From Escherichia phage ECO07P2, in sequence record OP172785: a stretch of 64,000 nucleotides of DNA; one strand, 5' to 3'. Shown piece after piece: positions 3,601-55,801 of the stretch. The number at the start of each line of letters is the position of its first letter. Position 1 is the first letter of the stretch. The notes below the pieces were generated by a model, which was not told the origin of the DNA, made no database searches, and saw nothing but the letters and a program-made list of their open reading frames with translations. The position numbers and the translations under genes are program-made.

Positions 3601-4458
3601 CCTTTAATTAAGCAACGTTATAAAGATGGAACATTTACCTTTGGTACATTGACAAATGAACCTACCTCAAATGATGAAGGTGCTTTTATTCTTCATTATA
3701 TAGATGCAGTAAAAACCCAGCGCAAATGGTCCTTTAGACGGAACGGTGATTTAGAAATATCGGCAGGTAATTTCGTTCTTGGTAATGGGACTGCTGTAAT
3801 TAATGGCGGGCTTAATGTTACTAAAGCTTCAGGTATTACAACCACCAGTCTAGTTGCTAATAGCGAATCTAGATTCGAAGGTGCCGTTACTATTAACAAC
3901 TTCCTTACGGTAAGCAACAAAGCTACCATTAACAACGGCTTAGATGTTCAGAAATATGCAAGGGTTACAGGAGATAAGACTTCTGACATCTATAGCAGAA
4001 AACCTACAATGGATAATGTTGGTTTTTGGTCTATAGACATCAACGATTCAGCCACTTATAACCAGTTCCCAGGTTATTTTAAAATGGTTGAAAAAACTAA
4101 TGAAGTGACTGGACTTCCATACTTAGAACGTGGTGAAGAAGTTAAATCTCCTGGTACATTGACTCAGTTTGGTAACACACTTGATTCGCTTTACCAAGAT
4201 TGGATTACTTATCCAACGACTCCAGAAGCACGTACCACTCGCTGGACGCGTACATGGCAGAAAACCAAAAACTCTTGGTCGAGTTTTGTTCAGGTATTTG
4301 ATGGAGGTAACCCTCCTCAGCCGTCTGATATCGGTGCTTTACCATCTGATAATGCTACAATGGGGAATCTTACTATTCGTGATTTCTTACGAATTGGTAA
4401 TGTTCGCATTGTTCCTGACCCAGTGAATAAATCTGTTAAATTTGAATGGATTGAATAG
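613..4458 (+). CDS. 34: long tail fibre proximal subunit gp34
   Basis: 1281 aa ORF (T4 gp34 about 1289 aa), position after rnh, repeated fibre shaft motifs (TPKKL, ATQ..., RGVAEIATQ). Confidence 0.9.
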   Translation: MAEIKRKFRAEDGLDAGGDKIINVALADRTVGTDGVNVDYLIQENTVQQYDPTRGYLKDFVIIYDNRFWAAINDIPKPAGAFNSGRWRALRTDANWITVSSGSYQLKSGEAISVNTAAGNDITFTLPSSPIDGDTIVLQDIGGKPGVNQVLIVAPVQSIVNFRGEQVRSVLMTHPKSQLVLIFSNRLWQMYVADYSREAVVVTPANTYQAQSNDFIVRRFTSAAPINIKLPRFANHGDIINFVDLDKLNPLYHTIVTTYDETTSIQEDGTHSIEGRTSIDGFLMYDDNEKLWRLFDGDSKARLRIITTNSNIRPNEEVMVFGANNGMTQTIELQLPTNISVGDTVKISMNYMRKGQTVKIKAAGEDKIASSVQLLQFPKRSEYPPEAEWVTVQELVFNGETNYVPVLQLAYIEDSDGKYWVVQQNVPTVERVDSLNDSTRARLGVIALATQAQANADLENSPQKELAITPETLANRTATETRRGIARIATTAQVNQNTTFSFADDIIITPKKLNERTATETRRGVAEIATQQETNAGTDDTTIITPKKLQARQGSESLSGIVTFVSTAGATPASSRELNGTNVYNKNTNNLVVSPKALDQYKATPTQQGAVILAVESEVIAGKSQEGWANAVVTPETLHKKTSTDGRIGLIEIATQSEVNTGTDYTRAVTPKTLNDRIATESLSGIAEIATQVEFDAGVDDTRISTPLKIKTRFNSTDRTSVVALSGLVESGTLWDHYTLNILEANETQRGTLRVATQVEAAAGTLDNVLITPKKLLGTKSTEAQEGVIKVATQSETVTGTSANTAVSPKNLKWIVQSEPTWAATTAIRGFVKMSEGAITFVGNATAGSTQALDLYEKNSYAISPYELNKTLGNFLPRLAKAADSDKLDNLDSTQFIRRDVAQDINATMTFKQPARIESTLTATGVVNLSGSVTSNNTTLTGATAINSNSTVGAQNYIEFTSLSQGSGTWTSQHDSNVKAPVFLNITTLAGASRYVPLIKQRYKDGTFTFGTLTNEPTSNDEGAFILHYIDAVKTQRKWSFRRNGDLEISAGNFVLGNGTAVINGGLNVTKASGITTTSLVANSESRFEGAVTINNFLTVSNKATINNGLDVQKYARVTGDKTSDIYSRKPTMDNVGFWSIDINDSATYNQFPGYFKMVEKTNEVTGLPYLERGEEVKSPGTLTQFGNTLDSLYQDWITYPTTPEARTTRWTRTWQKTKNSWSSFVQVFDGGNPPQPSDIGALPSDNATMGNLTIRDFLRIGNVRIVPDPVNKSVKFEWIE

Positions 4459-4466
4459 GAGGTATT

Positions 4467-5582
4467 ATGGAAAAATTTATGGCAGAGTTTGGACAAGGAT
4501 ATGTCCAAACGCCATTTTTATCGGAAAGTAATTCAGTAAGATACAAAATAAGCATAGCGGGTTCTTGCCCGCTTTCTACAGCAGGACCGTATGTTAAATT
4601 TCAAGATAATCCTGTTGGAAGCCAAACATTTAGCGCAGGACTTCATTTAAGAGTTTTTGACCCTTCCACCGGAGCATTAGTTGATAGTAAGTCATATGCT
4701 TTTTCGACTTCAAATGACACTACATCAGCTGCCTTTGTTAGCTTCATGAATTCTTTGACGAATAATAGACTTGTTGCTATATTAACTAACGGAAAGGTTA
4801 ATTTTCCTCCTGAAGTAGTATCTTGGTTAAGAACCGCCGGAACGTCTGCTTTTCCATCTGACTCTATATTGTCAAGATTCGACGTATCATATGCTGCTTT
4901 TTATACTTCTTCTAAAAGAGCTATTGCATTAGAGCATGTTAAATTAAGTAATAGAAAAAGCACAGATGACTATCAAACTATTTTAGATGTTGTATTTGAT
5001 AGTTTAGAAGACGTTGGAGCTACGGGATTTCCTAAAAGAACATATGAAAGTGTCGAGCAATTCATGTCAGCGGTCGGTGGAACCAATAACGAAATTGCAC
5101 GTTTTCCAACTTCATCCGCGATAAGTAAACTCTCTGATTATAATTTAGTTCCTGGTGATGTTCTTTATCTTAAAGCTCAGTTATATGCTGATGCGGATTT
5201 ACTTGCGCTTGGAACCACAAATATATCCATCCGTTTTTATAATGCATCTAATGGATATATTTCTTCAACACAAGCTGAGTTCACCGGACAAGCTGGGTCT
5301 TGGGAATTAAAGGAAGATTATGTAGTTGTTCCAGAAAACGCTGTGGGATTTACGATATACGCACAAAGAACTGCACAAGCTGGTCAAGGTGGCATGAGAA
5401 ATTTAAGCTTTTCTGAAGTGTCAAGAAATGGAGGTATTTCGAAACCTGCTGAATTTGGCGTCAATGGCATTCGTGTTAATTATATCTGTGAATCTGCTTC
5501 ACCTCCGGATATAATGGTACTTCCTACACAAGCATCGTCTAAAACTGGTAAAGTGTTTGGGCAAGAATTTAGAGAAGTTTAA
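4467..5582 (+). CDS. 35: long tail fibre hinge connector gp35
   Basis: 371 aa, GGAGG RBS 8 nt upstream, synteny 34-35-36-37. Confidence 0.85.
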   Translation: MEKFMAEFGQGYVQTPFLSESNSVRYKISIAGSCPLSTAGPYVKFQDNPVGSQTFSAGLHLRVFDPSTGALVDSKSYAFSTSNDTTSAAFVSFMNSLTNNRLVAILTNGKVNFPPEVVSWLRTAGTSAFPSDSILSRFDVSYAAFYTSSKRAIALEHVKLSNRKSTDDYQTILDVVFDSLEDVGATGFPKRTYESVEQFMSAVGGTNNEIARFPTSSAISKLSDYNLVPGDVLYLKAQLYADADLLALGTTNISIRFYNASNGYISSTQAEFTGQAGSWELKEDYVVVPENAVGFTIYAQRTAQAGQGGMRNLSFSEVSRNGGISKPAEFGVNGIRVNYICESASPPDIMVLPTQASSKTGKVFGQEFREV

Positions 5583-40539: not shown

Positions 40540-40902
40540 TTAAAAGAATTTAAATTTTTTCTTTGACCTTTTATTAAATGCATCTTGTAGTTGCATTGTA
40601 ATACATTTTTCTACATGAGGAGCTAACTCAGCTTTTCTTTCTTGGTCAAGAATAGCAAAGTCCATTACGACTTTTCCATCAACCCAATCTAATTTTGTCA
40701 CATACACAATGTGTGTAGAACCGTCTTCTAGTTTAATGACAATCTCCTGGATAACATTTTCCATAGCAGATTTAATTATCTTAAGAGATTCATTAAAAAG
40801 ACGTTCTTTTCTTTCTTCTTCCCCCTCCGAAGAGGGGGATTCATCGATAATTTCTAGATCTAAATCTAAATCATCTTTATTCATTAAATTCTTCCATATC
40901 AC
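40540..40902 (-). CDS. 40: gp40 head vertex assembly chaperone
   Basis: About 120 aa ORF between 41 and uvsX; precise start uncertain. Confidence 0.65.
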   Translation of the reverse strand: MIWKNLMNKDDLDLDLEIIDESPSSEGEEERKERLFNESLKIIKSAMENVIQEIVIKLEDGSTHIVYVTKLDWVDGKVVMDFAILDQERKAELAPHVEKCITMQLQDAFNKRSKKKFKFF

Positions 40903-42058
40903 TTAACTGGTCTAGGTCAGTTTCTAAATCAGCTGCTGATTTACTTTTACTTTCTGGAGATTTAAATTTTTCAACCTTTGAGTTAATCAATTCGTCAACT
41001 TCAGCTTCAACAATTTCATTACTATCAATAGCACCTAACTGATAAGCGCGTTTAATAGCATCTCGGAATGGTTGATGCTTAAATAAAGGACCCCAGAATG
41101 TAGTACAGTTGGTATCTTTTGCACGCCAAGATTTTTCTTCGCGAATCATCTCGCCAGTTTCTTCATCAAGAAATTCACGAGCATACCAACCGTTTTTAGG
41201 TTTTACTACAAATCCTAATTCAAGAGCCATATCTAACAATCCAGAATAAGGATCGATGCCACCGTCAAATTTAACATCAATGAAGAATTTACTTTTTTCT
41301 TTAACGGTACGAGATTTTTCTACATTTAGAACAAATTGATACCCCTGAAGATCAGAACCATCTTTAATCTGGCGCTTACCGATAATGAATACAGTATCAG
41401 CCGAATACATTACGCCTGTACCACCTGTCATCACGGTTTTACTAAACATCTCAATTGTTTCAATTGTATGGTTAACCGCAACACATGGAATGTTTTTAAT
41501 ACTAAAATAAGGAGTAACAATACGGAATAATGACTTCAGCGATTTAGCACGAGTCATATCTGCCACAGATTTTTCATTCAAGGCATCTTCCGTTTCTTTC
41601 TTAGAAGCCATATTACCGATTGAGTCGATGAATACAATAACTTTTTCACCGCGCTCAATAGCTTCAAGCTGATTCACCATATCAATTTTCAGTTGTTCAA
41701 CTGACTGGATTGGTGTATGAATTACTCGTTCCGGGTCAACTCCCATAGATCGCAAATAAGCTGGAGTGATACCAAATTCGCTATCATAGAATAAACAAAC
41801 CGCATCAGGATATTTGTTCAAATACGCCGCAACCATAGTCAAAGACATATTTGATTTAAAGTGTTTAGAAGGACCTGCAAAAATAGTTAAACCAGACTGC
41901 ATACCACCGTCAATCGCACCTGAAATAGCGATATTAAGCATTGGGATTTTTGTACGGATTACATCCTTTTCATTAAAGAATTTAGATGTAGTCAGTTCAG
42001 CAGTCATTTTAGAAGTGGAAGCTTTAATCAAACGGGATTTTAAATCTGCAATAGACAT
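40877..42058 (-). CDS. uvsX: UvsX recombinase (RecA-like)
   Basis: 393 aa (T4 UvsX about 391 aa), RecA-fold ATPase, acidic C-terminus. Confidence 0.9.
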   Translation of the reverse strand: MSIADLKSRLIKASTSKMTAELTTSKFFNEKDVIRTKIPMLNIAISGAIDGGMQSGLTIFAGPSKHFKSNMSLTMVAAYLNKYPDAVCLFYDSEFGITPAYLRSMGVDPERVIHTPIQSVEQLKIDMVNQLEAIERGEKVIVFIDSIGNMASKKETEDALNEKSVADMTRAKSLKSLFRIVTPYFSIKNIPCVAVNHTIETIEMFSKTVMTGGTGVMYSADTVFIIGKRQIKDGSDLQGYQFVLNVEKSRTVKEKSKFFIDVKFDGGIDPYSGLLDMALELGFVVKPKNGWYAREFLDEETGEMIREEKSWRAKDTNCTTFWGPLFKHQPFRDAIKRAYQLGAIDSNEIVEAEVDELINSKVEKFKSPESKSKSAADLETDLDQLSDMEEFNE

Positions 42059-42135
42059 TCATTTTTTCCATAGGCATCATTATATTTTCCTCACTGGTTA
42101 AAGATAGAGTAATTATAACACAATAAATTTAGGCA

Positions 42136-42984
42136 TTAATCAACTGCTATTGGATGAATAGCATTAAACTTATGAAATGCTTCTGACTTTTCTTTGCGCG
42201 AAACACACATGCGAAGAACCTTTAATGGCTCGTCTTCTTCACCCAACGATTTTCGTTTTTCAATATTAGAAGTTTTCCAACGAGCTTGCTCTGGAAACTC
42301 TCTATTGATTTGCTCAAGCGCTCTATTATGTTTAGAATTACTACGAATTGAACTGCACCCGCCAGGAGCTTGTGCTTTTCCAGATACAACCAGATATTTG
42401 AACAAGGCCAAATGCGGATAACCTTGATTAATTAAATTGAGAAATGCATACATATCTTCGCACAAATCAATTTTTCCATACCCAATTTGTTCTGTCGTAA
42501 GTTTTCCAAGGTCATACCATGTATTCGTGAATCCATATGAATTTTCACGATAATTACCCCAAGATGAAGTAATTTTAAAAATTGGTAGGCGAGCATGGCC
42601 GTGATAATACCCGCAATCCATGGCATCTTCCACGTATTGAATCAATTCATAGAACTGTTCACGAGTTAATTGATTAATTTTATCTACACAGCGACGATCA
42701 TCTTTCTTTCGCATTGAACTCATACGAATAGTAGTATCATCATCAATCATCCAGATTCGTTGACCTGCATACATATCAGTAATTGCTTTACGAGTACCAG
42801 CAATTCCATTAACATCATCAGGAATAGTTATAATTTTAGCTCTAGACCCGTAAGCGTCATAATAAGCTTTTTCTTCGTGTTCACGTACTACAATATGAGG
42901 TTCATAATCAGTCGGAAACATATCAAGGGCAGAAACTGCCCCTACGCGTTGATAGCTTGGAATTACGAATTGAATCATTTCCAC
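42136..42984 (-). CDS. putative DNA glycosyltransferase, GT-A-like with DXD motif, at the beta-gt locus
   Basis: 282 aa; N-terminal QFVIPSYQR and WMIDDDT motif typical of GT-A folds; not the 351 aa T4 beta-gt. Confidence 0.6.
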   Translation of the reverse strand: MEMIQFVIPSYQRVGAVSALDMFPTDYEPHIVVREHEEKAYYDAYGSRAKIITIPDDVNGIAGTRKAITDMYAGQRIWMIDDDTTIRMSSMRKKDDRRCVDKINQLTREQFYELIQYVEDAMDCGYYHGHARLPIFKITSSWGNYRENSYGFTNTWYDLGKLTTEQIGYGKIDLCEDMYAFLNLINQGYPHLALFKYLVVSGKAQAPGGCSSIRSNSKHNRALEQINREFPEQARWKTSNIEKRKSLGEEDEPLKVLRMCVSRKEKSEAFHKFNAIHPIAVD

Positions 42985-43715
42985 TCACCGTTATAATCTT
43001 TTTTCGCAATATGAGTTTCGCCAGTTTTCCACCAATGGTCAACCAAATAAAAATGACGGGAATACACATGAAGGCTCCCGACATTCCATATAATGGAACC
43101 TGCTTTATACTGACGAGTTGAATCACCTGCATTCAAATCAGATACTAATTTATCTAGTACGTATTTTTGCCATGCATAATCATTACGGAATCCGAAGACC
43201 ACGTCATTTGAACGCATGTTAACCACTGCATTGACTTTCTTATCACGAATCAGGTACTGCACTGTATTCGTACACATGAAATCTGACATGCCATCTTTAT
43301 TGTAGTCAAACTGCATGGATGGACGAGTATAAATCATGATACCGCGGCGAGAATCAGGATTTTGACCAAGTTCAGCTAAACACATATCATACTGGGCATA
43401 GTTATCTTCTGACCAGATGGCCCAACCATAATTCGAGTTAATTTCGCCTTTAGAAGATGCTACCTGCTGCCAAATCTTCGGCGTTTCACCTGGAATATCT
43501 TTAACAAACAGACTTTGAGACTTATACCATTCAAGTTCACGCTGAATGTATTCATCATTAAGAGCGCCAAAAATAAAAGGTTCATCTGCTACAAATGATG
43601 CACCAATAATTTCAATAGTTTTAGCCCCGGTTTTATCAATTACGAAATCTTTTTCCTTTAATGCAAGACCCAAATCAAGACGGATTTCTTCAACTGTCAT
43701 ATAATCGTTAATCAT
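42975..43715 (-). CDS. 42: dCMP hydroxymethylase gp42
   Basis: 246 aa (T4 gp42 246 aa), thymidylate-synthase-like. Confidence 0.85.
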   Translation of the reverse strand: MINDYMTVEEIRLDLGLALKEKDFVIDKTGAKTIEIIGASFVADEPFIFGALNDEYIQRELEWYKSQSLFVKDIPGETPKIWQQVASSKGEINSNYGWAIWSEDNYAQYDMCLAELGQNPDSRRGIMIYTRPSMQFDYNKDGMSDFMCTNTVQYLIRDKKVNAVVNMRSNDVVFGFRNDYAWQKYVLDKLVSDLNAGDSTRQYKAGSIIWNVGSLHVYSRHFYLVDHWWKTGETHIAKKDYNGEWK

Positions 43716-43868
43716 TTAAACCTCAATTGATGCATTCATATTTAACTTGTAACAGTAATAAACTCCACCCTATAATAAGCGTTGGAATCATACAAGGAAC
43801 TGCTACGCTATAGTATATACTTATTATAATCATCAAGATTAAAAGCAATACTGCTAAAATTTTGCTTT

Positions 43869-44120
43869 TCATTCCTTCTCTCTGATGATAATTACTTGAT
43901 TTTGCTGTACAGATTTTTTAGTTTCACCTGCAATTGACCAAATAAATGTAATAAACCAACCAATGATTGACCAGTTAAACAGTAAAGATGTGAAAAAGAT
44001 TCCTACTGTCGATTTTGACCCACGCATCAAGGCGATGAACCATGGAAGCATGTATATAATAATAGCCAACACGCCTGAAACTAAAACCATAAAAATTGAA
44101 CCTGCTACTAAAGTTTCCAT
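43869..44120 (-). CDS. imm: superinfection immunity protein Imm
   Basis: 83 aa, two TM segments, T4 Imm length and position. Confidence 0.8.
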   Translation of the reverse strand: METLVAGSIFMVLVSGVLAIIIYMLPWFIALMRGSKSTVGIFFTSLLFNWSIIGWFITFIWSIAGETKKSVQQNQVIIIREKE

Positions 44121-44127
44121 GTTTTCC

Positions 44128-44508
44128 TCACTTAGTCAAATTTTTTACACATGAATTATAAGAATTCACTACATACTCCATCGGAGCATTTTTACCAGTA
44201 CGCCATTGGTAATTATTAGCCCAATTAGCCCAAAGCTCAGCGCAGTAGTTTTCAATTTTTTCTTCGCGTGTAATCACATCTGAATTACGATATGCTTGTG
44301 CAGATTCATCTGGACGAATAGCTTCGTCAAAATTCGCCTGCATTTGTTCTACTGTCTGTTTTGGAGCTTCTTTATAACACTTAACATTAGGATTATAAAA
44401 TTTGCTTGAACAGTTTACAATTTTTCCTACATCAGACTGATTTACTACCGGTCCTTGAGCTACACAACCAGTAAGACCCAATGCAATAACCAAAATAGCG
44501 ATTTTCAT
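44128..44508 (-). CDS. putative lipoprotein (126 aa)
   Basis: Signal peptide MKIAILVIALGLTGC with lipobox LTGC. Confidence 0.55.
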   Translation of the reverse strand: MKIAILVIALGLTGCVAQGPVVNQSDVGKIVNCSSKFYNPNVKCYKEAPKQTVEQMQANFDEAIRPDESAQAYRNSDVITREEKIENYCAELWANWANNYQWRTGKNAPMEYVVNSYNSCVKNLTK

Positions 44509-44520
44509 AATAATTTCCTC

Positions 44521-44772
44521 TTAAAACTTAACAAATAACTTTAAAGCATCTTCAGTTTTAATTCCTTTTCTTACACCCATAACAGAAATTGGCTGTGACT
44601 GAAATTTTCCTTTACCATTATAAATTTCCAATCCTGTCACCATTCCATTTTGTTCTATAATACCGTAAGTATTACCTTCATTTTCAAATTCTTTAACTTT
44701 AAAGAGTTTATTAGCTTTTTCTGCATTAACAACTTTTAAATTTTGAATAAAATTAGTTTGAATATTTTTCAT
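44521..44772 (-). CDS. hypothetical protein (83 aa)
   Basis: Start placed at MKNIQTNF downstream of the early promoter. Confidence 0.5.
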   Translation of the reverse strand: MKNIQTNFIQNLKVVNAEKANKLFKVKEFENEGNTYGIIEQNGMVTGLEIYNGKGKFQSQPISVMGVRKGIKTEDALKLFVKF

Positions 44773-54582: not shown

Positions 54583-54600
54583 AAAGGGCCGAAGCCCTTT
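54583..54600 (-). terminator. GC tetraloop hairpin at a-gt 3' end
   Basis: AAAGGGCC-GAAG-CCCTTT overlapping the a-gt stop. Confidence 0.45.
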
Positions 54601-55801
54601 ATTTTGTAATAATGTCAAACTGTTCTTTAAAGCAGAAGCTTGAATCTTGATGCTGATACAAAAATTCATAAGCTTTTTCGCGTTCACGGTCATAAAGAGC
54701 TCGGTCAGATGACAGTTCTTTAATACGCTCAAATGTTGATTCCATGTCATTTTCATCAAACCAAACGATACCGCTATCATGAGAAATTAACGGAGTATTA
54801 TCAACACGGAATTTTAAATTTTCACCAGTAGATTTCCAAAATACTGGAATTGTTCCGCATGCACCAAGCTCGAGATGAGTGTATTCTAAAGAACGTTGTA
54901 GATATTTTTTATCTAATTTACTCAGCTGATAACCAAATCCGGATTTACTCATACGTTCAAGCATTTCGCTATTTACATAACGGTCGAGAATTTGCGTTGG
55001 CAAATTAGGAGCAATTTTAATTTGGTCTACCTGATGAAGACGATAATACTCGTATGGAATTCCTTTTTCTTTAATAGGAATGAATGCTGGAGAACGTTCC
55101 AGACCTTCCATAATAGTACTTAGTCCTGCAGGTTTAAGATGTTTTTCATGAAAATCAAACATCTGATAAAAGCCTTTCCATGTAGTAGTACGACCAATCC
55201 AACGGTTGATATTCATGTTAATTTCAGAAACATCTTTCCAGTAGGTTGATCGAACCTTCGCAATATCCATAGGAGGCTGAAAGTTGTATACGGTCGGTGC
55301 TTCTTCAATATCATCAAACAGAGAAACTGTTTCTGGATACCATTCTTTCATCAGAACTTTATTAAAGTCACCATTATCAGAATGGCTAAAAATAACATCA
55401 GCTCGACGAACAGTTTCTTCTAATCCCAAATTTCGGCGTAAAGAAAGAGAAGAATGGTCATGCTGGTAAACTACAACACGAACCGAAGGTTTAATGTTAT
55501 CAATAATTTTTTTATAGTTATTAATGGTGTCTTCTTCTACTGAAGTAGCAGGAACTGAATTGATAATTAGAATATCACAATCATTTACCAGCTTAAGGGT
55601 TTTATCGTATTCTTTTGCCAATAAAACCGGAATTGAAAATGATTTATAATCATGCGCGCAATTACGAGTAAATGATTTATCTTTAGCATAAACCAAAGTT
55701 ACTTCATGACCATTTTTAATAAACCAATCACGTTGCTCAAGAGAAAATTTAGTTACGCCACAACCTTCAAGACCTCGAGCCATAAAAATGCATACTTTCA
55801 T
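54599..55801 (-). CDS. a-gt: alpha-glucosyltransferase (hmC DNA alpha-glucosylation)
   Basis: 400 aa (T4 alpha-gt 400 aa), N-terminus MKVCIFMARGLEGCGVTKFSLEQRDWF resembles remembered T4 alpha-gt. Confidence 0.85.
   Translation of the reverse strand: MKVCIFMARGLEGCGVTKFSLEQRDWFIKNGHEVTLVYAKDKSFTRNCAHDYKSFSIPVLLAKEYDKTLKLVNDCDILIINSVPATSVEEDTINNYKKIIDNIKPSVRVVVYQHDHSSLSLRRNLGLEETVRRADVIFSHSDNGDFNKVLMKEWYPETVSLFDDIEEAPTVYNFQPPMDIAKVRSTYWKDVSEINMNINRWIGRTTTWKGFYQMFDFHEKHLKPAGLSTIMEGLERSPAFIPIKEKGIPYEYYRLHQVDQIKIAPNLPTQILDRYVNSEMLERMSKSGFGYQLSKLDKKYLQRSLEYTHLELGACGTIPVFWKSTGENLKFRVDNTPLISHDSGIVWFDENDMESTFERIKELSSDRALYDREREKAYEFLYQHQDSSFCFKEQFDIITK

Follow-up and report, generated by a model that had tools for sequence, protein, structure and literature searches.

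The gene between uvsX and gene 42 of Escherichia phage ECO07P2 is very probably a T2/T6-type beta-glucosyl-HMC-alpha-glucosyltransferase

Introduction

The ba-gt genes of phages T2 and T6 were reportedly cloned by Winkler and Rueger (Nucleic Acids Res 1993). Studies have shown that their products (UniProt entries Q06717 and Q06718; PMC6024577) add a beta-1,6-linked glucose onto alpha-glucosyl-hydroxymethylcytosine (hmC), which gives gentiobiosyl-hmC (PMC6024577, PMC13216743). Homologs of T2 ba-gt in 12 RB phages and others were tabulated by Thomas et al. in 2018 (PMC6024577). In a 2026 Nucleic Acids Research paper, the T6 protein was modelled and assigned to the GT-A superfamily as a sister to GT2; in the same study, an alpha-GT or a beta-GT was found together with a TET-associated glycosyltransferase (TAGT) in most phages, and the T4-like combination of alpha-GT and beta-GT in only 6 of 753 (PMC13216743). 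In a paper of the same year in Applied and Environmental Microbiology, the TAGT was described as syntenic with T4 beta-GT, and LC-MS measurements on Tequatrovirus phages showed gentiobiosyl-hmC (PMC13390438). The pair alpha-gt and ba-gt is the common arrangement in Tequatrovirus, and T4 is the exception.

The sugar on hmC decides which host defences see the phage DNA. The Brig1 glycosylase, for example, removes alpha-glucosyl-hmC, whereas gentiobiosyl-hmC is resistant to it; deletion of ba-gt from T6 leaves only alpha-glucosyl-hmC and increases the sensitivity to Brig1 (PMC11078745). BapA is unable to remove glucose from gentiobiosyl-hmC, and the DNA of the T6 ba-gt deletion mutant becomes a BapA substrate (bioRxiv 10.64898/2026.02.25.707755). 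GmrSD-type enzymes still target gentiobiosyl-hmC (PMC13216743).

In this study, we analysed the gene that occupies the T4 beta-gt position in Escherichia phage ECO07P2 (record OP172785). The window is the whole stretch of DNA that was analysed, 64 kb in length, and our statements on the content of sugar-modifying genes cover those 64 kb. Earlier papers already describe this gene together with its product, fold and distribution, and no new biology is claimed for them. One point is mildly new, namely the His that T2 carries at a family-invariant Arg, and it concerns T2 rather than the phage studied here.

Results and Discussion

Gene Call and Locus

The ORF list of the window contains a GTG-started ORF of 282 aa at 42136..42984 on the minus strand, between uvsX (40877..42058) and gene 42 (42975..43715), as the initial annotation had reported, and the motifs QFVIPSYQR and WMIDDDT that it had named are both present in the translation. 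An ATG at 42978 lies two codons downstream of the in-frame GTG at 42984 and overlaps the TGA stop codon of gene 42 as ATGA. In the records of T2, GEP001 and QOTSP, an 843-nt CDS (280 aa) is annotated from the position equivalent to this ATG. Because of the overlap and of these 280-aa annotations, we believed that the ATG at 42978 is a likelier start than the GTG at 42984, so that the reported length of 282 aa is amended to 280 aa and the CDS of ba-gt (also g-gt or TAGT; beta-glucosyl-HMC-alpha-glucosyltransferase) extends over 42136..42978 on the minus strand.

Gene 42, also on the minus strand, encodes dCMP hydroxymethylase; its product matched the solved T4 enzyme (PDB 1b49) with an E-value of 1.6e-163, and the gene had 93% DNA identity to T4 gene 42. 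The order gene 42, ba-gt and uvsX is common to T2, T6, GEP001 and QOTSP; T2 and T6 also share the ATGA overlap of ba-gt with gene 42 and have gp42 and alpha-gt as partner enzymes. When 41900-44200 was scanned for promoters and terminators, the number of sites was 10, versus 10.0 expected from shuffled sequence, with no evidence of a promoter of ba-gt's own in that region. This result is compatible with co-transcription of gene 42 and ba-gt, and the ATGA overlap suggests that the two genes may be both co-transcribed and translationally coupled. The scan also returned one terminator-like hairpin within the 5' end of the ba-gt ORF.

Sequence Identity and Distribution

In end-to-end alignments (280 aa) with its counterparts between gene 42 and uvsX, the ba-gt product of the window was 99% identical to that of T2 (AP018813) and 98% identical to that of T6 (AP018814). 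It was also 99% identical to the QOTSP protein, with three conservative differences (D24N, K92R and I101V), all of them outside the invariant positions described below; only K92 and I101 distinguish the window protein from those of T2, T6 and QOTSP, which have R and V at these positions. A protein with 100% identity was found by tblastn in three records, those of ZCEC15, phiC600P9 and Shigella phage pSs-1 (NC_025829), and the RefSeq name of the pSs-1 copy is beta-glucosyl-HMC-alpha-glucosyltransferase.

In the profile searches, ba-gt matched PHROG 842 (E = 1.9e-89) and Pfam PF20691, the TAGT family, at 38.8 bits (E = 1.2e-9) over profile positions 2-205 of 205, which is above the curated gathering threshold of 27.5 bits. 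NCBIfam had no model for the ba-gt protein and none for the alpha-gt protein. A megablast search with the ORF as query matched 479 of 50,697 phage records, 474 of them at a coverage of at least 80% and 470 at 95-99% DNA identity, and many of the matched records carry the annotation beta-glucosyl-HMC-alpha-glucosyltransferase. The occurrence of the ORF at this coverage in 474 phage records is far beyond chance.

On the basis of the identity with the T2/T6 enzyme, the locus, the fold, the conservation of the motifs and the presence of the partner enzymes, we are confident that the gene is the beta-glucosyl-HMC-alpha-glucosyltransferase gene of T2/T6-type Tequatrovirus phages. A gentiobiosyl-type transferase as in T2 and T6 had been the first option named in the initial annotation, and the comparison with these two enzymes bears it out.

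Predicted Fold and Conserved Motifs

Two search rounds collected 51 family members, nearly all of which carry PF20691, and an exhaustive search of representatives placed 337 clusters in the wider PF20691-type family at E <= 0.001. In an alignment of 46 sequences with identity down to approximately 13%, residues I6, R11, R63, D79, D80 and D81 were invariant. Two of these, I6 and R11, lie in the QFVIPSYQR motif (residues 3-11; 42946..42972, minus strand), and D79-D81 form the DDD of a DXD-type motif (42736..42744, minus strand).

The structure model of ba-gt was confident. The predicted protein is a single Rossmann-like alpha/beta/alpha domain that could be superimposed on solved GT-A enzymes, the fold comparison listing AvpGT (9jma), GnT-I, TarP, TarS, cellulose and hyaluronan synthases and SpsA, and in the model the DDD directly follows strand E74-78, the fourth strand. 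A direct protein search of the PDB gave only chance matches (E >= 0.78) and no family member with a solved structure. With the family profile, 9jma was matched weakly and in the N-terminal part (E = 0.028); in this alignment, IPSYkR was paired with IPTYNR, R63 with R, and DDD with DDD. The superimposable model and this motif-for-motif alignment together support a predicted GT-A fold with a DXD-type motif, so the GT-A-like, DXD-bearing glycosyltransferase that had been proposed held up in the structure and profile comparison.

Judged from the model and the weak profile match, IPSYQR, as the nucleotide-sugar motif of GT2-type GT-A enzymes, and R63 would hold the nucleotide sugar, and the DDD would coordinate a divalent metal and the diphosphate of UDP. 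The DXD motif thus suggests catalysis that depends on a divalent metal, and a possible candidate for the catalytic base is D175 in a conserved "ED". Sequence identity to GT2-type inverting GT-A enzymes, such as the beta-1,3-glucosyltransferase AvpGT (9jma), TarP (6h1j) and SpsA (1h7l), was only 8-16%. The acceptors of the GT2-type enzymes are a lipid-linked glycan or teichoic acid, whereas that of ba-gt is glucosylated DNA, and ba-gt has an extra Lys/Arg-rich C-terminal region (approximately residues 200-280) in comparison with 9jma, TarP and SpsA. Although ba-gt matches the TAGT profile over its full length, the family is named after members that adjoin TET/JBP dioxygenases; here, hmC derives from the thymidylate-synthase-like gp42 and not from a TET enzyme, and the acceptor of ba-gt is a sugar that is already on the DNA.

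Replacement of the T4 segA and beta-gt Segment

In blastn of window positions 40800-43800 against T4, the DNA homology stopped at 42046, in the 5' end of uvsX, and restarted at 42993, in the 3' end of gene 42. The cassette that differs from T4 (42047..42992) is 946 nt long and stands in place of approximately 1.9 kb in T4, where a 351-aa beta-gt and the homing endonuclease segA are annotated in the interval between uvsX and gene 42. BLASTP detected no similarity between the ba-gt protein and T4 beta-gt (best E = 3.4), in agreement with the earlier description of an unrelated protein at this position, which had left segA unmentioned. By tblastn, no remnants of T4 beta-gt or segA were found anywhere in the 64-kb window (best E = 1.3-1.4; 1.4 for beta-gt), and a decayed beta-gt was rejected for this reason.

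The two enzymes are alike in that both sit in the slot between gene 42 and uvsX, use UDP-glucose as the donor and form a beta linkage on modified phage DNA (PMC13390438). However, T4 beta-gt has a GT-B fold (PDB 1JG7, cited in PMC13216743), which belongs to a different fold superfamily from the GT-A fold of ba-gt, and its acceptor is the hydroxyl of hmC, whereas ba-gt uses the first glucose. Relative to T4 beta-gt, ba-gt is a non-homologous replacement and not a diverged ortholog.

Partner Enzymes and Proposed Pathway

The T4-like alpha-glucosyltransferase that had been placed at 54599..55801 (minus strand) was confirmed; it matched the solved T4 enzyme (PDB 1xv5) at E = 5e-257 and PHROG 2888 at E = 3.8e-222. 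Its identity was 99% to the T2 protein, 91% to T4 and 92% to T6, so that it represents the T2-type allele. Two alpha-gt alleles, approximately 9% apart in protein, were seen among phage records, a T2-type (419 records at 99% identity or more to the window) and a T4/T6-type (62 records at 90-95%). In T6, ba-gt occurs together with the T4-type alpha-gt, and the window has the T2-type.

Both enzymes that make the acceptor for ba-gt, the gp42 hydroxymethylase and alpha-gt, are therefore encoded in the window. In the proposed pathway, gp42 would make hydroxymethyl-dCMP, which would be incorporated into phage DNA; alpha-gt would then attach a glucose to the hmC of this DNA in alpha linkage; and ba-gt would move a glucose from UDP-glucose to the 6-OH of this first glucose in beta-1,6 linkage, giving gentiobiosyl-hmC. 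Since the donor UDP-glucose is alpha-linked and the product is beta-linked, ba-gt would be an inverting enzyme, and this matches its GT2-like relatives. We consider it very probable that ba-gt of this phage carries out the same beta-1,6 glucosyl transfer to alpha-glucosyl-hmC as in T2, T6 and QOTSP.

The DNA of QOTSP is approximately one third hmC and two thirds gentiobiosyl-hmC by LC-MS (PMC13390438), and we believed that QOTSP is the best available proxy for the modification of the DNA studied here, which is thus probably largely gentiobiosylated. The presence of alpha-gt and ba-gt in this phage therefore predicts a T6-like profile of sensitivity to host defences, and such a prediction is useful for host-range prediction and for the choice of phages in therapy.

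Extent of the Second Glucosylation and Choice of Sugar

An enzyme that is present but weak, as apparently in T2, would leave the DNA mostly as mono-alpha-glucosyl-hmC with a few percent of gentiobiosyl-hmC. The T2 protein is 99% identical to that of the window, yet gentiobiosyl-hmC amounts to approximately 5% in T2 (PMC6024577), and the alpha-gt of the window is the same 99%-identical T2-type allele. However, the window protein has Arg11 and Pro251, as have T6 and QOTSP, and the combination of His11 and Ser251 occurs in T2 alone. With a 57-nt probe for the T2 allele at codon 11, a full-length match of 100% was found only in seven T2 records and in the T2 clone SV76 among 443 records. In addition, QOTSP has a T2-type alpha-gt that is 99.5% identical to that of the window and still carries approximately two thirds gentiobiosyl-hmC (PMC13390438). 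We therefore regard a weak enzyme as unlikely in this phage. The same comparison led us to reject the idea that the T2-type alpha-gt allele limits the second glucosylation, as QOTSP shares the allele and is highly gentiobiosylated (PMC13390438).

As for the T2 copy itself, codon 11 encodes His (CAT) in the two T2 records examined, AP018813 (positions 4283-5125 of extract L002) and LC348380 (2295-3137 of extract L006), in place of the Arg that is invariant in the 46-sequence family alignment; the codon corresponds to window positions 42946..42948. T2 also has Ser251, at a largely conserved Pro that is present in T6, QOTSP and the window. The T2 and QOTSP proteins differ only at H11, D24 and S251, and both phages have a T2-type alpha-gt, with 5% gentiobiosyl-hmC reported for T2 (PMC6024577) versus approximately two thirds for QOTSP. 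For T2 and T6, whose enzymes share 98% identity, the reported levels of gentiobiosyl-hmC are 5% and 72%, and the extent of the second glucosylation is thus not readable from sequence. One possibility, which we hold only tentatively, is that H11 and S251 make ba-gt hypomorphic in the T2 laboratory lineage and so explain this difference. We met no statement of this idea in the papers that we consulted, without a dedicated search for it. If it is true, Arg11 and Pro251 would place the phage studied here with T6, and its DNA would be heavily gentiobiosylated.

Two T6 records also deserve a comment. In MH550421 (positions 2138-2980 of extract L005), codon 10 of ba-gt is the amber codon TAG in place of CAG, and a 'ggt' CDS of 261 aa is annotated from Met20; T6 record AP018814 has CAG at this codon, so that the amber is either a nonsense mutation in the stock or a sequencing error. 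In AP018814 (4135-4974 of extract L003), ba-gt encodes 279 aa, and one Asp of the DDD is missing (WMI-DDT). T6 is reported at 72% gentiobiosyl-hmC despite the DD of this record, and the window has the full DDD.

Transfer of another sugar, or action on unglucosylated hmC, which would give a DNA modification other than gentiobiosyl-hmC, is highly unlikely. The PF20691 family is diverse, as its 337 clusters indicate, and a solitary member without alpha- or beta-gt is found in 288 of 753 phages (PMC13216743), so that other specificities within the family are probable. The window protein, however, is 98-100% identical to the enzymes of phages such as T2, T6 and QOTSP, in whose DNA gentiobiosyl-hmC has been measured (PMC13390438), and its three substitutions relative to QOTSP are conservative. 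The suggestion of another sugar in the initial annotation did not survive this comparison, and an arabinosyl-type or other-sugar transferase was rejected on the same identity. An arabinosyltransferase of the RB69/Mosigvirus type, which goes with a 5-hydroxy-dC precursor pathway, is moot in any case, given this identity to glucosyl-transferring enzymes and the T4-type dCMP hydroxymethylase in the window; searches that started from T2 ba-gt found no RB69 homolog (PMC6024577).

We found no point in support of a chance reading frame, or of a decaying pseudogene that fills the gap left by loss of beta-gt, and this explanation is practically negligible in view of an intact 280-codon frame in 474 phage records, distant homologs that keep invariant residues of catalytic type, a confident model, a start coupled to gene 42 and the lack of a beta-gt remnant. 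A functional ba-gt of the T2/T6 type is the reading that we prefer.

Neighbouring Small ORFs and Record Annotation

A strongly hydrophobic ORF of 49 aa (43723..43872, minus strand) occupies all of the space from imm to gene 42 and matched PHROG 3610, of unknown function, at E = 4.4e-25. Its ATG overlaps the stop codon of imm as ATGA and lies just after AAGGA. T4, T2, T6 and GEP001 all keep this frame open, and most of the changes in it are conservative. QOTSP carries an annotation for it (QOTSP_277), whereas the T4 RefSeq, T2, T6 and GEP001 records have none. A second ORF of 83 aa (44521..44772, minus strand), between imm.1 and the 3' end of gene 43, matched PHROG 18567, also of unknown function, at E = 7.4e-52. 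In this slot, T2 annotates an equally long ORF (252 nt) under the wrong label 'tail tape measure protein', and T4 and T6 annotate nothing, which indicates a variable slot for small genes.

The automated annotation of AP018813 and AP018814 is badly mislabelled. For example, the gp41 helicase is named 'major capsid protein' and gp40 'baseplate hub subunit', alpha-gt is labelled 'N-acetylmuramoyl-L-alanine amidase', and ba-gt appears as 'hypothetical protein'.
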